A DNA stretch of 60,708 bases, filler included, from 5 parts of 5 records of this genome joined end to end with filler, not necessarily neighbours in it; one strand, 5' to 3'. Shown: positions 28,280 through 44,835, counted from the first letter of the whole stretch. The notes: generated by a model from the sequence alone, not told the origin. Made by a program: numbers and translations.

Positions 28280-28318
28280 TCCGCTCCGCAACATGTACCA
28301 ACCGTTAACTGTAATGGT
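28280..28318 (+). repeat. Right end of an upstream attC-like site, including the core GTT at 28304
   Basis: CCGCAACATGTACCAACC-GTT resembles CGGCAACAAAACTTACCACCACC-GTT at 34002-34027; cut by contig edge. Confidence 0.6.
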
Positions 28319-28547
28319 GAAAAAAAGTGCATACAATAAAAACAAATGTAAGGAGGTGTAAAACATGAAATAACATTAACTGCCAAACAAATCAAGGATT
28401 CTATTTGGCATGGAAGTTTGGTATCTGCTAATTCCAGTAGTCTTTCCATTAATTGAAACTACAAAAAACCTCACCCCATAGTTGACGGCAATCTACGCAG
28501 GGATGAGGCTGCAAAACAATTAAGTTTTAACTTTCAAAAATAAACAA

Positions 28548-29255
28548 ATGAAAAATAACAAATTAATTTACATTGCCTTTTTTAGCTTAATTATTACAAC
28601 ATTTTTTGTCTCATGTTCTAAAAACGATGACAATATTCCAGAAGATGAATCTCCAATTCTTTTTTCAAAAGAAATTGAAGTATTCGACCTAAACAATGAA
28701 TGTTCTGCAGTAATGAAAATTTCTTCTGAAGATGCAAGTCTACTGGACTTTTACACGGAAAAGAATTTTGAAATTATTCCGGTAAAAGAAGGACAAACTT
28801 TTGACGAAGCTGTTGATGCATATTATGCCCTTTATCCAATACCTGAGGATGAAGACTTAACAGCAGAAGAAGACGATGATGAAAGTATCATTGAAGATTC
28901 TGATGCACCAACTGTTAATATTGAAAAGGTAAGCGAGAGGTTAGTGGAAGGAGTGAAATATTTGGCAATTACGAGTATCGCTCCCGATTTTGGAGATGTA
29001 AGAGGCTGGAATATTTCTACTTATTGGGACTTTAGTGGTTCTTTATATTGTGATTTCAAAAGAACCTCATGGCTTAATAATGTCTATTTTGGAATAAAGT
29101 GTAATGATAATCCATATGATTGGCTTGTTGAATATCCTAAGTGGGCTAAAAATAATAAGTTATATTCCTACTCACAACCAGTCAATTTTGAATGGTGGGA
29201 TTTAAAAGTTAAGTACCGTAGAACAAAGAATTTTACTTATTCATTTCATAACTAA
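28548..29255 (+). CDS. Hypothetical surface lipoprotein with acidic middle and Trp/Tyr-rich C-terminal domain
   Basis: SPII signal FVS-C followed by SKNDD; A-rich translation start typical of Bacteroidota. Confidence 0.85.
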   Translation: MKNNKLIYIAFFSLIITTFFVSCSKNDDNIPEDESPILFSKEIEVFDLNNECSAVMKISSEDASLLDFYTEKNFEIIPVKEGQTFDEAVDAYYALYPIPEDEDLTAEEDDDESIIEDSDAPTVNIEKVSERLVEGVKYLAITSIAPDFGDVRGWNISTYWDFSGSLYCDFKRTSWLNNVYFGIKCNDNPYDWLVEYPKWAKNNKLYSYSQPVNFEWWDLKVKYRRTKNFTYSFHN

Positions 29256-29261
29256 CAGAAT

Positions 29262-29295
29262 ATTTTAGGGTGTATGATTACATACACCCTAAAAT
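29262..29295 (+). terminator. Perfect 15-bp intra-operon hairpin
   Basis: ATTTTAGGGTGTATG-ATTA-CATACACCCTAAAAT, 6 nt after the lipoprotein stop. Confidence 0.7.
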
Positions 29296-29310
29296 TATAA
29301 TTTATATAAT

Positions 29311-30216
29311 ATGAACATAAATGAAATATCTTTCAAAATCATTAGAAATATTCTGGGTCTGTCAATAATTGGTTTAATAGCCTGTCAAGAAATTGAGATT
29401 GACATCAATACGTTAATATCTTCCAAAGAAGCAACTCAATATGAGATTGCAATAGAAGGAGGTATCGTATCCAAAATGGGAAAACAGTTTGTAAGATTAT
29501 CAAAACCAATACAAATCAACGAACAAAGGGGAAGTAGTCCTATTTCTGATGCTACTATAACATTATATGATGGAGATACATATTATGTATATGAAGAATC
29601 TGAGGAGGTGGGGATTTATTTTACTCATGATAGTATTCGCGGTGAAGTAGGTAAATTATACACGCTAACAGTTGAATATAACAACAAGAAATATTTTGCG
29701 TCAGACTCGCTTGTGAAAGTTTTCTTTAATCAGGATGATAAACTACCAATTAAAAATGTTTATGAAGGGAAACATGATAGAGTGTATTTTGATTCAGACT
29801 TTCACAATTTCGGATACCCAGAAGCAAATAAATGGATTTTCAAATTGCCTGGACAAGATGATAATAGGAATTATTATATTAAAGAATTTAATACCGATGA
29901 GCTGGTAAACTGGAGAAATTATATATACACACATAATAATGCATTGCCCCAAGGTTTATTCCCAAATGGTGGTATTGGCACCGGAGCAGGCGGTGATGCC
30001 GATGCCGAGATTGAATTTGTTAAATTCTCCTTGTCAGATAAATACTATAAATATCTATTGTCATATTTTGATGAAACAGTGTGGCATACTGGCATTTTTT
30101 CAACCTATCCCGGTAATACCTATACAAATGTAAGCGACGGCGGTACCGGATATTTCTTTGCATCTGATATAAAAGAAATAAAAGTAAAATTTAGCGATTT
30201 GGCTAATTATGAATAG
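29311..30216 (+). CDS. DUF4249 family lipoprotein
   Basis: Lipobox LIA-C then QEIEID; IAIEGGI...VRLSK; YTLTVEY; C-terminal TNVSDGGTGYFFAS. Confidence 0.8.
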   Translation: MNINEISFKIIRNILGLSIIGLIACQEIEIDINTLISSKEATQYEIAIEGGIVSKMGKQFVRLSKPIQINEQRGSSPISDATITLYDGDTYYVYEESEEVGIYFTHDSIRGEVGKLYTLTVEYNNKKYFASDSLVKVFFNQDDKLPIKNVYEGKHDRVYFDSDFHNFGYPEANKWIFKLPGQDDNRNYYIKEFNTDELVNWRNYIYTHNNALPQGLFPNGGIGTGAGGDADAEIEFVKFSLSDKYYKYLLSYFDETVWHTGIFSTYPGNTYTNVSDGGTGYFFASDIKEIKVKFSDLANYE

Positions 30217-31579
30217 AAGCTTTCTCGTAATAATTATTTATATGCTATCAATATCAGCAGGGTTAAGGGCGCAAGAAGCCATCTCATATTATAACCTCGA
30301 AAAAATTCAAGCATTTGAATCATGGAAAATGCTCGATAATGCCATAAAAAATGATACAAAAAATATTGTAATTGCAGTAATTGACAAAGGCATAAATTTC
30401 AACCACGTAGATTTAAAAGATAATCTTTGGACAAATAAAAATGAAATCCCAAACAATTTAATAGATGATGACCAAAATGGTTTTATTGATGATTATTATG
30501 GATGGAATTTTGCAAATAACACAAATGACATAACAATATCAGGGGTTGGGAATTGGCATGGAACTCCTGTTAATGGGATAATTGGTGCTGTTCATAATAA
30601 CGTAGGAGTAAATGGTGTGTGCCCTAAAATAAAACTTCTAAATGTTGTGAAAGGTGATGATATTGAATCAATAAAAAAATCGCTCAATTATATCTATAAT
30701 TTAAGAAAAAGGTATAACCAGACAGACGGACTCGAAGGTGCTTTTGTGGTTGCAATAAATTGTTCATGGGGAAAGGATTCATTATGGGCAGCCGATTACC
30801 CTGAATGGTGTGAAATTTACAACAAATTAGGAAAAGTTGGAATATTATGTGTTACATCAGCGCCTAATGATAATATTGATGTTGATTTATACGGTGATAT
30901 GCCTTCCACATGTTTAAGCGATTTCTTAATAACAGTAACGAATACCAATCAATTCGACGAAAAAATCTATGATTCCGGCTATGGTTCTTCTTCTATTGAT
31001 TTAGGTTCGCCCGGGGAAAATAGTTTTACCACACTTAATCCGGGAGGATATGGTTATTTTAACGGGACGTCAGCAGCTACTCCCTATGTTACAGGGGCAG
31101 TTGGAATAATGTATTTTTTGCCTTCATTAATTTTTCAGGCTGATATTAAAAATACCCCACAAGAAACTGCTTTACTAATAAGGAAAGTATTATTAGATGG
31201 GATTGATAAATCAACTTCTCTTTTAGGAAAAACAGTTACAGAAGGAAGACTTAATATTTTTAACAGTTTAAAATTATTATGTGATTATTATGGTATTCAA
31301 AGTTTGTACTCTGACAACTTTGCAGAGTTAGAAATAATATCAATTTACCCAAATCCCATTTTAACTGATGCAATATTAACCTTAGAAAGTAATTTAAAAC
31401 AACAGGTAAGTTTATACGTGTCTGATATGATGGGACATATTGTACTTTCACTACAAATAAAACAAAAGGAGGGAATTGATTTACACAGCATTAATTTTTC
31501 TGGGTTAACTCCAGGAATATATATTCTTTCTGTTTCGGATAATAGAATAAGAAAATCAATAAAAATAATAGTACAATAA
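30209..31579 (+). CDS. S8 subtilisin-like serine peptidase with T9SS C-terminal sorting domain
   Basis: Triad motifs AVIDKG, WHGTPV, NGTSAATP; CTD IYPNP...DMMG...GIYIL...KIIVQ. Confidence 0.9.
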   Translation: MNRSFLVIIIYMLSISAGLRAQEAISYYNLEKIQAFESWKMLDNAIKNDTKNIVIAVIDKGINFNHVDLKDNLWTNKNEIPNNLIDDDQNGFIDDYYGWNFANNTNDITISGVGNWHGTPVNGIIGAVHNNVGVNGVCPKIKLLNVVKGDDIESIKKSLNYIYNLRKRYNQTDGLEGAFVVAINCSWGKDSLWAADYPEWCEIYNKLGKVGILCVTSAPNDNIDVDLYGDMPSTCLSDFLITVTNTNQFDEKIYDSGYGSSSIDLGSPGENSFTTLNPGGYGYFNGTSAATPYVTGAVGIMYFLPSLIFQADIKNTPQETALLIRKVLLDGIDKSTSLLGKTVTEGRLNIFNSLKLLCDYYGIQSLYSDNFAELEIISIYPNPILTDAILTLESNLKQQVSLYVSDMMGHIVLSLQIKQKEGIDLHSINFSGLTPGIYILSVSDNRIRKSIKIIVQ

Positions 31580-31589
31580 AGGTTAAACT

Positions 31590-33875
31590 ATGAGAATTAA
31601 ACTAGTATATATAATTCTATTCATAATTAAAAGTCAAATACTTATAGCCCAAGATGTTTTTACAATCAGCGGACATGTTTTTGATAAGAATAATGGAGAA
31701 TATTTAGTAGGGGCAACAATTTACAACCAGTTAACCAGTGATGGAACAACTACTAACGAATATGGTTTTTTTTCAATAAGTATTCCCGTTGGCAGATGTA
31801 ATATTGAATGTTCATTTATTGGATATACAACACAAGAGATTTCTATGCCCATTGGGAAAGATTCTATACTAAACATCGGATTAGACAGAAGAAGCATTGA
31901 TTTAAACGAGGTTCTTGTAACAGAATCAACTAATAGTAATTTGAAAAATAACGAATTTACCGTTGAACGCATTTCTACAAAAGATATAAGGCAGCTACCA
32001 AGTGTTATTGGGGAACCAGATTTAATAAAAACATTGCAACTTCAGTCTGGTGTAAAAACAATTGGAGATGGTTCATCGGGGATGTTTATTCGAGGTGGCA
32101 GTTCTGACCAAAATTTAATTATTATTGATGAAGCCCCTATTTACAATCCCTCTCATTTATTTGGATTAATTTCGGTTTTCAATACAGATGTTTTAAGTGA
32201 TATTAAGTTTTATAAAAGCAATATGCCGGCACAGTATGGAGGAAGGGCTTCTGCGGTAATTGATTGCAAGATGAAAGAAGGTAATTTGAAACAAACACAA
32301 CTTACTGCCGGAATAAGCCCCTTTTCTGCAAACGTTTCTATAAACGGACCAGTAATAAAAGATAAATCGTCCTATTTATTTTCATTAAGAAAAAGCTATT
32401 TAGATATATTTTTAAATACTGGTGCAAATCTGGCTTTATTACCGGCATTTTATGATTTAAATGCAAAAGTAAACACTAAATTAGGTGAGAAAAACAGGTT
32501 ATATTTTTCAGTTTACAATGGTCTTGATAAATTAAGGTCTGTAGATGGTTTTTATAATAAGTGGGGAAATAAAACCACAACTTTAAGATGGAACAGCATA
32601 TTAGATGCAAAACTGTTTTCAAATTTTTCATTTATATATAGTGACTATAACAATTACCTCGAATTTGAAGAAGAAAAACAAAATTACAAATGGCTTACAG
32701 GAGTTAAAGATTTAAATGCCAAAATAGATTTGTCATGGTATATGAAACCAGAAACAGTTCTTAAATTTGGTGGCGGTACAATTTATCATCGTTTTATCCC
32801 GGGGGAAACCAAAGACAGTACTCAAAACATTCCACGTATCCAAGCTATTGAAACATCAGCATATATACTAAATGACATAACATTTTCAAAGTGGTTAGGT
32901 GTAAACTATGGACTCAGACTTTCGGTTTTTCAGAATATTGGGGAAGCTAAAATTTTTAACTACAATAATGATAATGAATATATTTCAACAACGGTGAATC
33001 AAAAAGGGATTTACAATACTTATTGGAATCTTGAACCAAGGGTCAACTTAAATTTTAGAATGAAAGAAACATTATCATTAAAACTGGCTTATGCTCGTAA
33101 TGCCCAGTATATGCAAGTCCTTCAAAACAATTCATTGTCATATTCATCTTTAGAAACATGGTTTCCTGCAAATAAAAATATCAAACCATTACTTGCAGAT
33201 ATATTCTCTTTAGGTGTGTTTAGAAGTATTCCATCAGGCTATTCTGTTTCGGTAGAAACTTATTATAAAAACTTTGAAAATCAAATTGATTATGTTAACC
33301 ATGCAGCTTTGATAAATAATCCATATATAGAAAGCCAAACATTAAGCGGTAAAGCAAAAGCGTATGGAATTGAGTTTAATCTTAAAAAAGAAGTTGGCAG
33401 TTTAACGGGTAGTATTAGCTATAATTACTCAAAAGCAAAGCGCACAATAAAAGGCATTAATAATGGCGATGAATATGACTCCCCTTACGATATTCCGCAT
33501 GACATTAAGATAATTGGAAACTATTCGATAAATAAAAACTGGAATTTCAATTCAGCTTGGGTATTTCAAACAGGGAGACCAGTAACGTTACCCGTGGGTT
33601 TTTATTTTTATCAGGGAGATGCCGTACCTATTTATACTAAACGAAACAGCAGCCGATTTCCTAACTATCACCGTCTTGATATTTCTTGCACCTATCAAAC
33701 AAGAAGAGAAAATAAATCCAATTGGTTTTTAACTTTTGCTATTTACAATTTATACTCAAGGAGAAATCCTTTGGGTTACAAATTAGTTTATGACTATTCT
33801 GCTAACTCAATTAAAGGATATGAATATGCATTATTTACAATTCTCCCAAGTATATCAATTCGATTTGAAATATAA
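31590..33875 (+). CDS. TonB-dependent outer-membrane transporter with CarboxypepD_reg-like N-terminal domain
   Basis: ISGHVFD...GTTTNEYGFFSI; plug GEPDLIKTLQ...IRGGSSDQN...YNPSHLFG; YHRLD; NLYSRRNP. Confidence 0.92.
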   Translation: MRIKLVYIILFIIKSQILIAQDVFTISGHVFDKNNGEYLVGATIYNQLTSDGTTTNEYGFFSISIPVGRCNIECSFIGYTTQEISMPIGKDSILNIGLDRRSIDLNEVLVTESTNSNLKNNEFTVERISTKDIRQLPSVIGEPDLIKTLQLQSGVKTIGDGSSGMFIRGGSSDQNLIIIDEAPIYNPSHLFGLISVFNTDVLSDIKFYKSNMPAQYGGRASAVIDCKMKEGNLKQTQLTAGISPFSANVSINGPVIKDKSSYLFSLRKSYLDIFLNTGANLALLPAFYDLNAKVNTKLGEKNRLYFSVYNGLDKLRSVDGFYNKWGNKTTTLRWNSILDAKLFSNFSFIYSDYNNYLEFEEEKQNYKWLTGVKDLNAKIDLSWYMKPETVLKFGGGTIYHRFIPGETKDSTQNIPRIQAIETSAYILNDITFSKWLGVNYGLRLSVFQNIGEAKIFNYNNDNEYISTTVNQKGIYNTYWNLEPRVNLNFRMKETLSLKLAYARNAQYMQVLQNNSLSYSSLETWFPANKNIKPLLADIFSLGVFRSIPSGYSVSVETYYKNFENQIDYVNHAALINNPYIESQTLSGKAKAYGIEFNLKKEVGSLTGSISYNYSKAKRTIKGINNGDEYDSPYDIPHDIKIIGNYSINKNWNFNSAWVFQTGRPVTLPVGFYFYQGDAVPIYTKRNSSRFPNYHRLDISCTYQTRRENKSNWFLTFAIYNLYSRRNPLGYKLVYDYSANSIKGYEYALFTILPSISIRFEI

Positions 33876-33893
33876 TAATGAAAATATAAGAAA

Positions 33894-34031
33894 ACCACTA
33901 CAGTTAACACGTGGTAAATTTAATTGCCGGGGCAGTGGCAAATTCAACGTTTGTAGCTCGCATAAAAATCACAGCAACTTGACAGTGAAACCGCCCGTAA
34001 TCGGCAACAAAACTTACCACCACCGTTACCA
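33894..34031 (+). repeat. attC-like recombination site
   Basis: TAAC (33905-33908) and GTTA (34025-34028) ends enclose inverted arms GTGGTAAATTTAATTGCCG (33911-33929) and CGGCAACAAAACTTACCAC (34002-34020), 16/19 complementary; begins 18 bp after the last stop codon. Confidence 0.7.
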
Positions 34032-34051
34032 AACATATTGAAGAAAAGAAA

Positions 34052-42685: not shown

Positions 42686-44251
42686 CTATTTTGCAAACTC
42701 AATTGCTCGAGTCTCCCGGATAACTGTTACTCGTATTTGGCCAGGATATGTTAGCTGCTCTTCAATTTCTTTGGCTATATCACGGCTCATAAGTGTCGCT
42801 TCATTATCCTTAATTTTTTGGCTATTTACTATAATCCGCAACTCCCTACCTGCCTGAATGGCGTAAGATTTCTCAACTCCACTGAAATTATTCGCTATAT
42901 TCTCAAGGTCCTCAAGGCGTTTCACATAGCTCTGCAGCATCTCCTTACGGGCACCGGGCCGCGCACCGGACAATGCGTCGGCAGATTGTACCAGTACGTC
43001 AAGAACACCCTTAGGAGGCTGGTCCTCATGATGGGCCCCAATGGCGTATACAATATCCTCTGGCTCACCATATTTTTTTGCAAGATCACGACCAATGACA
43101 GCGTGTGACCCTTCGACCTCATGATCAACAGCTTTGCCTATATCATGCAGCAAGCCGGCACGCTTAGCCTTTTTAACATCCAATCCAAGCTCAGCTGCCA
43201 TAACCCCGCAAAGAAAAGCGACCTCAAGAGAGTGCTGCAATATATTCTGCCCATAGCTTGTCCGGAACTTGAGCCTACCAATCAGGTTAATAAGGTCAAC
43301 GTGCATCCCATGAGCCCCAACATCAAAAGTAGCCTGTTCTCCTGACTCACGAATTTCTACTTCAAGCTCCTCTGTTACCTTCTGCACTACCTCTTCTATA
43401 CGTGCGGGATGAATGCGTCCGTCTGAAATCAACTGCTCCAGCGCAAGTCGGGCAACTTCTCGCCGAATAGGGTTAAACCCAGAAAGTATAACGGCTTCCG
43501 GAGTGTCATCAATAATAATATCGATACCGGTCGCGGCCTCAATGGCCCTGATATTCCGCCCTTCTCTCCCAATAATACGCCCTTTCATGTCATCGTTAGG
43601 CAAGGGGACCATGGAAACAGTTTTGTCAGCTACGTAATCGCCAGCATATCGGGCGATGGCAAGGGCAAGTATATTTTTGCCTTTCCGATCAGCCTCAATT
43701 TTCATTTCATTTTCGATACGGGACAATCGCTTTGCACAGTCCATCCGTGCCTCACTTTCGATGGACTCCATTAACTGTTTTTTTGCCTCGTCCCTATTTA
43801 TTCCTGCTATTTGTTCGAGCTTATATCGCTGTTCATCTACAAGGGCTTCATAGTTCTTTTTTCGTTCAGCCACATATTTTTCAGCTGAATCGACACTCCC
43901 TTCTCTTTCGCGAAGTTCAGACTGTCGGTCTTCCAACAACTGAAAATCCTTTTGGACATCATCAAATTTTCGACTTAGCCGACGCTGATCATCCTTTAGC
44001 TCCTGACGGCTTATCTTAATCTCCCGCTCAGCTTCCTGCTTCGCTTGGTAGGCCTCTTCTTTGGCCAAGAGAAATGCTTCTTTTTTTATCTGTTCAGCTT
44101 CACTTATGGCGTTTTCAATGATCTGTCGTCCCTGGGACTCCAAATTCCGCTGATTGCCTTCGACGAGTCGTTTCCGTAGATATATTCCAATCCCAAGACC
44201 GGCAAAAAAATTTACCACCGCCAGAAACATGGTCATCATATTGAGTTCCAT
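42686..44251 (-). CDS. rny: Ribonuclease Y
   Basis: N-terminal TM and coiled coil; KH domain [15 protein letters not shown] domain [15 protein letters not shown]. Confidence 0.96.
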
Positions 44252-44664
44252 GAAAGTACCTGTATGTTGCGCAGTTTGTTACTAAAAATAACAAGTAACA
44301 AACAACTGCAGTAAAAAATGTAAAGGGAGGGGGGGTAGAGCGGAATTCGATGACAATTACCGCTTAGAGGGGCACAGTCAGACTAAACAGTTACAGGAAT
44401 GGTAACAAAACTGCCAAAACACGGCAGCGGCCTGGTCCTCTTCAGTTCAAACGTTGACGAGAGAATAGAAATGGTATTCGATCAATTTTCTCGTAAAATC
44501 TGCCCGGCGGAGAGTTTCACATCTATAATAAACCTGATCTCATCAGAGTTGTCTTCTTTCACTGGACCAGTTCGCGTCCGCTTCTGCACTTACTTCCATC
44601 CCATTTCAGTACGTCAGATGGCTAATGCGTCGCAGCAGATTCCGGCCCGCTGCGATTATATAAA

Positions 44665-44835
44665 AAACCCCCGCGCTGCCGTGTTAACGCAATGATTAAA
44701 CCTAAGCAAATAGGTGGGCAATGCTAATTGCCGCCTCAGGGAATCAGTAAAGTTTCCTATCGTACGACAAGACAGCTACCCTAATCATGAGAGTTGGCTC
44801 AATACTCCGTTAATCACAAACAGAGCAGGGGTATC
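44665..44835 (-). ncRNA. ssrS: 6S RNA
   Basis: Canonical position downstream of zapA and upstream of rny; ends pair (ACCCCTGCTCTG / CAGCGCGGGGGT) to give a ~170-nt rod with central bubble; boundaries approximate. Confidence 0.85.

Follow-up and report, generated by a model that had tools for sequence, protein, structure and literature searches.

The stretch of DNA analyzed here (hereinafter the window, 60,708 nucleotides in total) consists of five contigs with N spacers between them, and it raises the question of why the third contig (28280–34051, 5,772 bases) carries an entire four-gene operon enclosed by repeat-like sequences. The GC (guanine plus cytosine) content of this contig is 32%, and that of the remaining four contigs is 43–51%. 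The initial annotation, made from the sequence alone, regarded the contig as one unit of an integron cassette array. The analysis described below leads to a related answer: the segment 28304–34025 is, with a probability of roughly 0.8, one gene cassette of a recombinase-associated, integron-like Bacteroidales array, most probably of the same kind as the clusters of gut Bacteroidales known as rAID-1, short for recombinase-associated acquired interbacterial defence (Ross et al. 2019, bioRxiv 10.1101/471110, in the passages that introduce them).

Borders of the unit and its copies elsewhere

The contig start reads ...CAACATGTACCAACC|GTTAACTGTAATGGT, with GTT at 28304–28306. The 24 nucleotides (nt) in front of it (28280–28303, plus strand), CCGCAACATGTACCAACC, match the consensus 3′ arm of a family of folded sites and represent the end of an upstream site cut by the contig start. 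The cassette start (28304–28318, plus strand) is composed of the GTT exchange triplet, six cassette-specific nucleotides (AACTGT), AAT, and GGT, corresponding to the family form GTT-N6-AAT. At the opposite end, ACCACTACAGTTAAC (33894–33908, plus strand), composed of ACC, ACT, the cassette-specific ACAGTT, and AAC, is followed by an imperfect hairpin and then by CACC|GTTACCAAACAT, where a second GTT occupies positions 34025–34027. The complete folded site, a putative attC-like recombination site of 128 nt belonging to a divergent subtype of the family, was delimited at 33903–34030 (plus strand) by the covariance model R1 described below. Its outer stem is formed by 33911–33917 and 34014–34020, and its 3′ arm contains a conserved 5-nt bulge (33997–34001, plus strand; GTAAT here, GAAAT in most copies), which is unpaired in the predicted folds. 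The contig closes with GTT and the first bases of the next cassette (34025–34051, plus strand; GTT-ACCAAA-CAT..., family form GTT-N6-CAT), cut by the contig end. The contig therefore holds one complete site and one cut site, both of its ends lie in or beside sites, and it encodes no integrase.

In a pattern search, the 15-mer 33894–33908 (plus strand, no mismatches) recurred at 28304–28318 (minus strand, one mismatch), which confirms the initial description of a contig bounded by a repeat tail and a hairpin, with ends complementary at 14 of 15 positions. The GTT end now attached to the hairpin had been said to pair for only 4 nt, and indeed GTTACCAAACAT at 34025 is complementary to the AAC arm over GTTA only. 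A repeat finder extends the 28304/33894 inverted pair to 26 nt with 81% identity (I4), but it also reports three perfect 15-nt inverted pairs elsewhere in the same AT-rich contig, so the weight falls on the position of the terminal pair at the GTT/AAC borders and not on its length. This placement of the pair exceeds chance, and it is seen again and again across the site family. The single mismatch, 28314 versus 33898, is exactly the A·C mismatch that recurs in the family.

Folding predictions gave the hairpin by itself only modest stability, with −19.8 kcal/mol and a z of −2.1 for the bottom strand and a z of −0.9 for the top strand. When 33894–34027 was joined to 28307–28318 as a mimic of the excised circle, 14 of the 15 bases of 33894–33908 were paired with the cassette start, and the predicted energy fell from −16.0 to −24.9 kcal/mol for the top strand and from −19.8 to −29.6 kcal/mol for the bottom strand.

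Contigs of four public sequencing runs were aligned to the contig: X1, which is the probable source, X2 and X3 from marine sediment (another study), and X18 from a third study. Runs from mats, hot springs, and soil (X4–X17), which share small fractions of the words of the contig, play no part in this comparison. In X2 and X3, the same operon is present, roughly 92–97% identical over the aligned pieces. The alignment runs from exactly 28304 up to 34029; beyond these points lies unrelated DNA, different from 34030 onward. These breakpoints place the exchange within GTTA(C) on both sides. By this comparison, the unit in the window is a mobile cassette, because a near-identical operon elsewhere has other flanks from exactly these GTTs outward. 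The X18 copy is about 92% alike and has the same kind of upstream site, and the contigs of this run break at and within sites. In X1, other contigs share 28280–28325 (at most 5 differences) and then diverge; the depth over this shared part sums to 767, compared with a cassette depth of 15.5. Copies of 33901/33905–34028/34030, about 86% alike, are contained in at least three more contigs of X1. The initial annotation had found the contig breaks to fit a repeated element, and this depth, the diverging contigs, and the breaks seen in genomes all agree with that.

Another cassette start, GTTGTGTG with a shared stretch of about 30 nt behind it, was found twice in the complete genome G772 (L078:18226 onward and L081:6197 onward). 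One of these copies lies behind a site. In front of the other there is no site but a tRNA-Gly/tRNA-Leu cluster, accompanied by tRNA-fragment repeats and a GIY-YIG gene.

The GC content of the arrays is 32–33% whatever the host. Thus, in L205 (G624:C113) the host has 52.5%, the recombinase gene 50.4%, and the array 32.1%; the cassette of the window has 31.6%. Given this uniformity, the odd GC content of the contig is no longer a worry, and the GC-uniform arrays (L205, L078, L101, L143, and L081) suggest a common cassette pool among hosts of very different GC content.

The site family and its exchange register

A search with a gapped pattern revealed the exact 20-mer from the first bases of the contig in 3 of 401 Bacteroidales genomes and no matches among reversed controls. 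Each of the three matches is the end of a conserved element of about 126 nt that opens with TAAC and closes with ACC-GTT. Sites of this family are 126–130 nt in length, with AAC at the start and GTT at the close. A pattern from the centre of the element was found in at least 120 metagenome contigs, and 59 of the 80 sampled Bacteroidales genomes contain sites; the genome G402 has 38 of them. They form same-strand arrays of up to four sites, 0.5–1.4 kb apart (L125, L175, L101, L191, and L103), in which common and divergent subtypes can co-occur (e.g., L183 and L078).

An nhmmer profile of 73 common-type copies gave 180 matches in the loci collected and did not find the 3′ site of the window at E < 1e-3. 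The covariance model R1, built from 51 diverse copies with the site of the window left out, matches 33903–34030 with 71.7 bits and an E value of 6.4e-15 over model positions 1–130; the next match in the 60.7-kb window has an E value of 1.1. Among the copies seen, L183:1332–1462 is the most similar to the site of the window. The initial annotation had proposed a covariance search for arrays and an adjacent tyrosine recombinase. Arrays were found with the family models, of which R1 comes from other copies only, and a recombinase heads arrays of this family elsewhere. Short BLAST matches of the site (19–27 nt) in 401 genomes of the phylum of G001, the complete genome nearest to the other contigs of the window, lie inside genes or in short unrelated hairpins and were rejected as chance. 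A blastn comparison of the site and the left end with 52 homologous-operon loci and the other window contigs also gave chance matches only, including a coding one at 44199–44222.

The consensus fold of seven copies contains 30 pairs, 13 of them with compensatory changes. Across the 51 copies, conservation is 90% or higher in the columns CCG-A/T-AAT-C, and the unpaired blocks GGATTCTCGCAT, GGACAGGAACG, and CCGAAATCCGC are highly conserved in sequence. The only conserved bulge seen is the 5-nt one (GAAAT or GTAAT) on the L′–R′ arm; single-base bulges are uncertain in predicted folds. For the site, Rfam gave no match at gathering thresholds over the window and none at E values up to 1 over L059–L061.

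If exchange takes place at GTT, a cassette should carry, right after its leading GTT, six or seven bases that pair with those preceding its own AAC. In 26 neighbouring same-strand pairs of sites, the nine bases that follow the upstream GTT were compared with the reverse complement of the nine in front of the downstream AAC; matches not spanning profile positions 3–124 were left out of the count, as were 15 sites that lack AAC/GTT where these are expected. At least six consecutive complementary bases, with the first six or seven unbroken, were found in 21 of the 26 pairs, and at least seven of nine in 18 of the 26. The same was observed in 1 of 118 cases when the two flanks of one site were compared, and in 1.35% of pairings when 20,000 were drawn at random. 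All of this follows a fixed register: cassettes start with GTT-N6-AAT (or CAT, AAG in place of AAT) and end with ACT-N6-AAC (or CGA, CCA/ACA in place of ACT), which results in the recurrent A·C mismatch at the eighth base. Judging by this signature and by the X2/X3 breakpoints, cassettes bounded by folded AAC...GTT sites are exchanged at GTT, as first suggested, and the exchange lies within GTTA(C) on both sides, a span compatible with G|TT.

The site is thus neither single-copy nor alone in showing complementarity between the unit start and the downstream AAC arm, two features that the initial annotation had named as decisive. As for fixed flanks in relatives, the near-identical X2/X3 copy has other flanks, and the distant homologues (52 loci) are site-free.

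The recombinase at the head of the arrays and alternative explanations

The protein of G772 that best matches an integron-integrase model is encoded next to a tRNA-Asp gene and heads a four-site array. Homologues of this 314-amino-acid recombinase (48–100% identity) head co-oriented sites in all seven loci for which downstream sequence is available (L078, L202, L203, L204, L205, L101, and L143), which agrees with the early suggestion that a tyrosine recombinase is tied to such arrays. In four of the seven loci, the GTT+N6 expected from the AAC flank of the first site is present exactly once, 84–126 nt past the recombinase stop codon. Read from its position and sequence, this junction about 100 nt after the stop is attI-like. 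L207, in which the recombinase lies at the contig start, and L208, with a 29%-identity recombinase, contain no sites.

A recombinase homologue at an E value of 1e-60 or better is encoded in 145 of the 401 Bacteroidales genomes (41–62% identity). Among the first 40 genomes with the recombinase, 38 contained sites, versus 21 among the first 40 in which no homologue was detected (Fisher p 2e-5, a value inflated by kinship; genes can also be hidden in draft genomes). The initial annotation called integrons rarely reported in Bacteroidota, but the system seen here is not rare in Bacteroidales: sites occur in 59 of 80 sampled genomes, the recombinase in 145 of 401, and arrays of such a build entered the literature in 2019 under the name rAID-1. 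In draft genomes, dozens of recombinase homologues lie 100–350 nt from a contig end with the stop codon facing that end, which fits assemblies breaking at the first site of an array.

The mechanism we propose is as follows. The tyrosine recombinase at the array head, similar to Xer and IntI and co-oriented with the cassettes, would be the enzyme that moves them, cutting at GTT. The sites would act as folded single strands, by analogy with attC, and the cassette would pass through a circle, whose junction in this case would read ...CACCACC-G|TT-AACTGTAATGG. Neither the recombinase gene nor the remainder of the presumed array is contained in this contig.

Several observations weigh against this reading. 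Five of the 26 pairs lack the signature, all of them long intervals (1.2–4.2 kb); inside one of these exceptions (L078, 3.1 kb), R1 later located a further site (L078:17253). The first junction is not clear in three of the seven recombinase-headed loci: L078 has two possible junctions, located 543 and 739 nt past the stop codon, L203 has one on the wrong side only, and L202 has none. Of the genomes without a detected recombinase homologue, 21 of 40 still have sites, and it is by position alone that the recombinase is linked to the arrays. Neither a second complete site nor a recombinase is present on the contig or in the 60.7-kb window (the initial annotation had likewise seen no integrase), and the membership of the cassette in an array is deduced from the two contig ends. 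G001 contains no match to the contig and no site, and the contig (28280–34051) could be strain-specific or wrongly binned relative to 1–28179 and 34152–60708. The cargo of the cassette is not an immunity gene. Finally, all the data are sequence-based.

A different enzyme acting on real sites, either host XerC/D or a recombinase paired with IS91-family transposases, is unlikely but accounts for part of these observations. Modules of an IS91-family transposase and a Xer-like recombinase can be noted just 5′ of a site in four loci (L130:2025–3182, L196:1415–2550, L146:978–2098, and L198:1651–2729), about 100 nt from it, and sites are present in the 21 of 40 genomes without the array-type recombinase. 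However, the IS91 modules end directly on the AAC of the site in seven loci, which looks like insertion into sites. The array-type recombinase stands at the head in all seven loci, with the first junction beside it in four, and many of the 40 recombinase-negative genomes are drafts in many contigs, where contigs often break right after this gene. Similar IS91 modules were noted in L086, L095, L101:3513, and at the loose end of run X3 at window position 33906. The end of the module in the seven loci, a short GC hairpin with TTAGTTC, abuts the AAC, which looks as though the AAC side of the sites were what these insertion sequences aim at.

The array-heading recombinase passes the NCBIfam XerA/integron-integrase model NF040815 (233 against a cut-off of 220), but such recombinases do not reach the cut-off of 265 of the IntI model TIGR02249: their scores are 226, 201, and 187, each in two blocks that skip model positions 178–242. 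Alignment with IntI4 of Vibrio cholerae (2a3v) is likewise split in two: between the blocks, 17 residues stand opposite the 59 of IntI4 that include the IntI-specific domain; the C-terminal tail with the motif G-x-x-G-x-x-SP aligns with IntI4. The best matches are archaeal XerA and bacterial XerC/D, and the structure matches are PDB 4a8e and 5hxy. A search of a protein atlas revealed only generic integrase clusters. The task of Xer enzymes is the resolution of chromosome dimers, for which they use a single dif site; they are not known to stand at the head of cassette arrays. An integron integrase is defined by an additional domain close to patch III, the intI_Cterm of IntegronFinder (Messier and Roy 2001, as cited in a passage of PMC4889954). 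By these alignments, the array-heading recombinase resembles both Xer and IntI and is not an integron integrase by this defining feature.

This makes a classical integron cassette, in which an IntI with the extra domain encoded elsewhere in the genome uses the sites as ordinary attC, very unlikely. The outline of attC is present in the sites: AAC...GTT, an imperfect hairpin of 126–130 nt, a branched centre, and R′/R″ pairing of 9–10 bp. According to the pertinent part of PMC4889954, attC clusters without an integrase are also common among integrons. However, no protein over the IntI cut-off was found in three site-bearing genomes, one of them complete, and the conserved 5-nt bulge lies on the L′–R′ arm, whereas the extrahelical bases of attC are on the R″–L″ arm (PMC2727003, in its account of the site). 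Of the initial claim of an integron cassette, the integron-like anatomy and register stand; the name integron in the strict sense does not, since the recombinases lack the IntI domain and fall below the IntI cut-off.

It is highly improbable that the sites are structured RNAs or terminator-like (REP-like) repeats at gene ends, with an immobile operon and end complementarity arising by chance. The sites do follow stop codons (18 nt here), their unpaired stretches are highly conserved, and 15-nt inverted repeats arise by chance in this contig. Nevertheless, no Rfam family matches, an RNA element leaves the neighbour-specific complementarity of start and distal end (21 of 26 versus 1 of 118) unexplained, and the breakpoints between samples fall at the GTTs. 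A non-autonomous transposon with 15-bp terminal inverted repeats can practically be dismissed: although a 14/15 inverted repeat lies near both ends and no transposase is encoded inside, no target-site duplications were seen, the right repeat lies inside a 128-nt site common to hundreds of unrelated cassettes, and the repeat sequence varies by cassette within a constant GTT/AAC frame.

The cargo and the relation to known systems

The gene calls and Pfam searches agree with the four genes of the initial annotation. All four are co-directional (plus strand). Behind a leader (28319–28547), gene 1 (28548–29255) encodes a predicted lipoprotein of 235 amino acids that belongs to no known family, with a sub-threshold match to DUF4972 only. 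Gene 2 (29311–30216) encodes a DUF4249 protein of 301 amino acids (PF14054, E 1.2e-17), and gene 3 (30209–31579) encodes an S8 subtilase of 456 amino acids with a type IX secretion C-terminal sorting domain (PF00082, E 3.6e-28; PF18962, E 4.2e-10). Gene 4 (31590–33875) encodes a TonB-dependent receptor of 761 amino acids with the CarboxypepD_reg (PF13715), plug (PF07715), and barrel (PF00593) domains.

The closest homologues of gene 4 (45–62% identity) were found in metagenome-assembled genomes (MAGs) of Bacteroidales, and homologues of gene 1 precede the same operon in L001, L008, L010, L012, and L039. The order of lipoprotein, DUF4249 protein, S8 protease with the type IX secretion tail, and CarboxypepD_reg TonB receptor is conserved in Bacteroidales MAGs from the rumen, sediment, and other sources. 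No R1 sites were found around the distant operon homologues (45–62% protein identity) in 52 loci covering 739 kb, which indicates that these distant homologues are not cassettes. The genomes that contain them have sites elsewhere (38 in G402, 5 in G403, 2 in G404, and 4 in G405). From this comparison, the operon resembles ordinary cargo of chromosomal origin, taken up in its entirety.

The cassette measures 5,721 bases from GTT 28304 to GTT 34025 and 5,605 nt from GTT to AAC, and R1 with filters off found no internal site in it. When it was compared with 25 signature-bearing cassettes from other loci, it proved to be the second longest of the 26; the median of the 25 others is 1,065 nt. The longest cassette (6,948 nt) contains four genes, has an intact signature, and adjoins the recombinase in L143. 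The leader of 244 nt, counted from GTT to the first start codon, is the longest among the 25 cassettes with a forward open reading frame (the other 24: median 30.5 nt, range 3–162 nt). Given this length, the operon may bring its own promoter. Near-matches to the motif TAnnTTTG are located at 28521 and 28528. A cassette as large as an operon, with enough space for a promoter of its own, is thus real and rare, as the initial annotation emphasized, but it is not unique. The 6.9-kb first cassette beside the recombinase (L143:795–7740) carries four large genes; judged by eye from the first residues only, these include what look like genes for an SMC/DndD-like ATPase and a Schlafen/AlbA_2-like protein, and the cassette looks like a phage-defence module that would move as one unit.

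The build of the arrays invites comparison with rAID-1, which is present in about half of Bacteroidales genomes according to the relevant passage of bioRxiv 10.1101/471110. The defining passage of the same source specifies a 5′ XerD-like recombinase at least 44% identical to BF9343_RS08045, at least two co-directional genes downstream, a GC content of at most 41%, and repetitive intergenic sequences. The arrays described here show the same build, with a recombinase at the head, 32–33% GC, and sites in 59 of 80 genomes. Their GC content, like the 31.6% of the cassette, lies below the rAID-1 limit. Co-directional genes follow the recombinase in L078, L101, L143, and L205, and the cassette described here has four co-directional genes with the recombinase off the contig. 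Repetitive intergenic sequences are also present, a comparison made by description. By their build, the arrays are probably of the rAID-1 kind. There are differences: the passages on rAID-1 deal with short orphan immunity genes (100–300 codons) in gut isolates, whereas here a 5.7-kb outer-membrane uptake operon is involved and near-identical DNA occurs in marine sediment. The same passages contain no hairpin anatomy, exchange point, or cassette signature. In the corresponding parts of a 2025 follow-up (PMC12247911), how rAID biogenesis works is left open, and attC, hairpins, and integrons go unmentioned.

As a second comparison, integrons were considered, above all sedentary chromosomal ones with VCR-type attC of about 125 nt, as outlined in parts of PMC4889954 (Cury et al. 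2016) and PMC2727003 (Bouvier et al. 2009). The likeness extends, as far as these parts describe it, to imperfect AAC/GTT hairpins, exchange at GTT, R′ at the 5′ end of the cassette, 9–10 bp of R′/R″ pairing, the integrase-proximal junction, and the branched centre, as well as to the asymmetric spacer (AAA versus CAACC) and the long imperfect stem. In contrast to integrons, the IntI-specific domain is missing from the recombinase, which points the same way as the cassettes, the sites have a highly conserved sequence in many genomes, the conserved 5-nt bulge is on the arm opposite to the extrahelical bases of attC, and long leaders and several genes per cassette are possible. Like CALIN, the attC clusters without integrase outlined in PMC4889954, the contig contains sites and cargo with no integrase nearby; however, CALIN are defined there by the attC model of IntegronFinder, and the missing integrase is here most simply explained by contig breaks. 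Complete integrons are hardly known in this phylum, and the pertinent passage of the IntegronFinder 2 paper names Salinibacter ruber only.

A 6S RNA gene was also noted on the fourth contig of the window (44664–44834, minus strand; Rfam RF00013, 56.1 bits).

In the literature searched beyond Ross et al. 2019, no attC-level description of this system was found. As far as this literature shows, four aspects appear to be new in print: an anatomy like that of attC, the register of exchange, the integrase-proximal junction, and the operon-sized cargo other than immunity genes. The rAID arrays are abundant and their origin has been left open by their authors; the cassette and its relatives offer a concrete mechanism, with GTT exchange in a folded AAC...GTT site, the GTT-N6/N6-AAC register, and an insertion point about 100 nt past the recombinase stop codon. 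We would put at even odds a broader proposal, namely that most Bacteroidales carry a second, integron-analogous gene-capture system, with an IntI/Xer-like recombinase that dispenses with the IntI domain regarded as essential for reading folded attC sites, a hairpin of about 126 nt with a 5-nt bulge, the register mentioned above, and a cargo of small immunity genes as well as of operons of 5.7–6.9 kb with their own control regions. Such a system would have invented the integron principle independently or would be a relative of the integron ancestor that has survived; the way in which rAID arrays are built would thereby be explained.

Contigs of low GC content with such sites at their ends would be array fragments, which binning tends to lose or misplace. 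Since standard integron finders need the IntI domain, they would not report such arrays as complete integrons. The cargo extends beyond immunity genes to the protease and TonB-receptor operon here and to four-gene defence-like modules elsewhere, each as one cassette, so these arrays can apparently move whole operons and not single small genes only. An integron look-alike without the IntI domain also bears on the need for this domain and on the origin of integrons.

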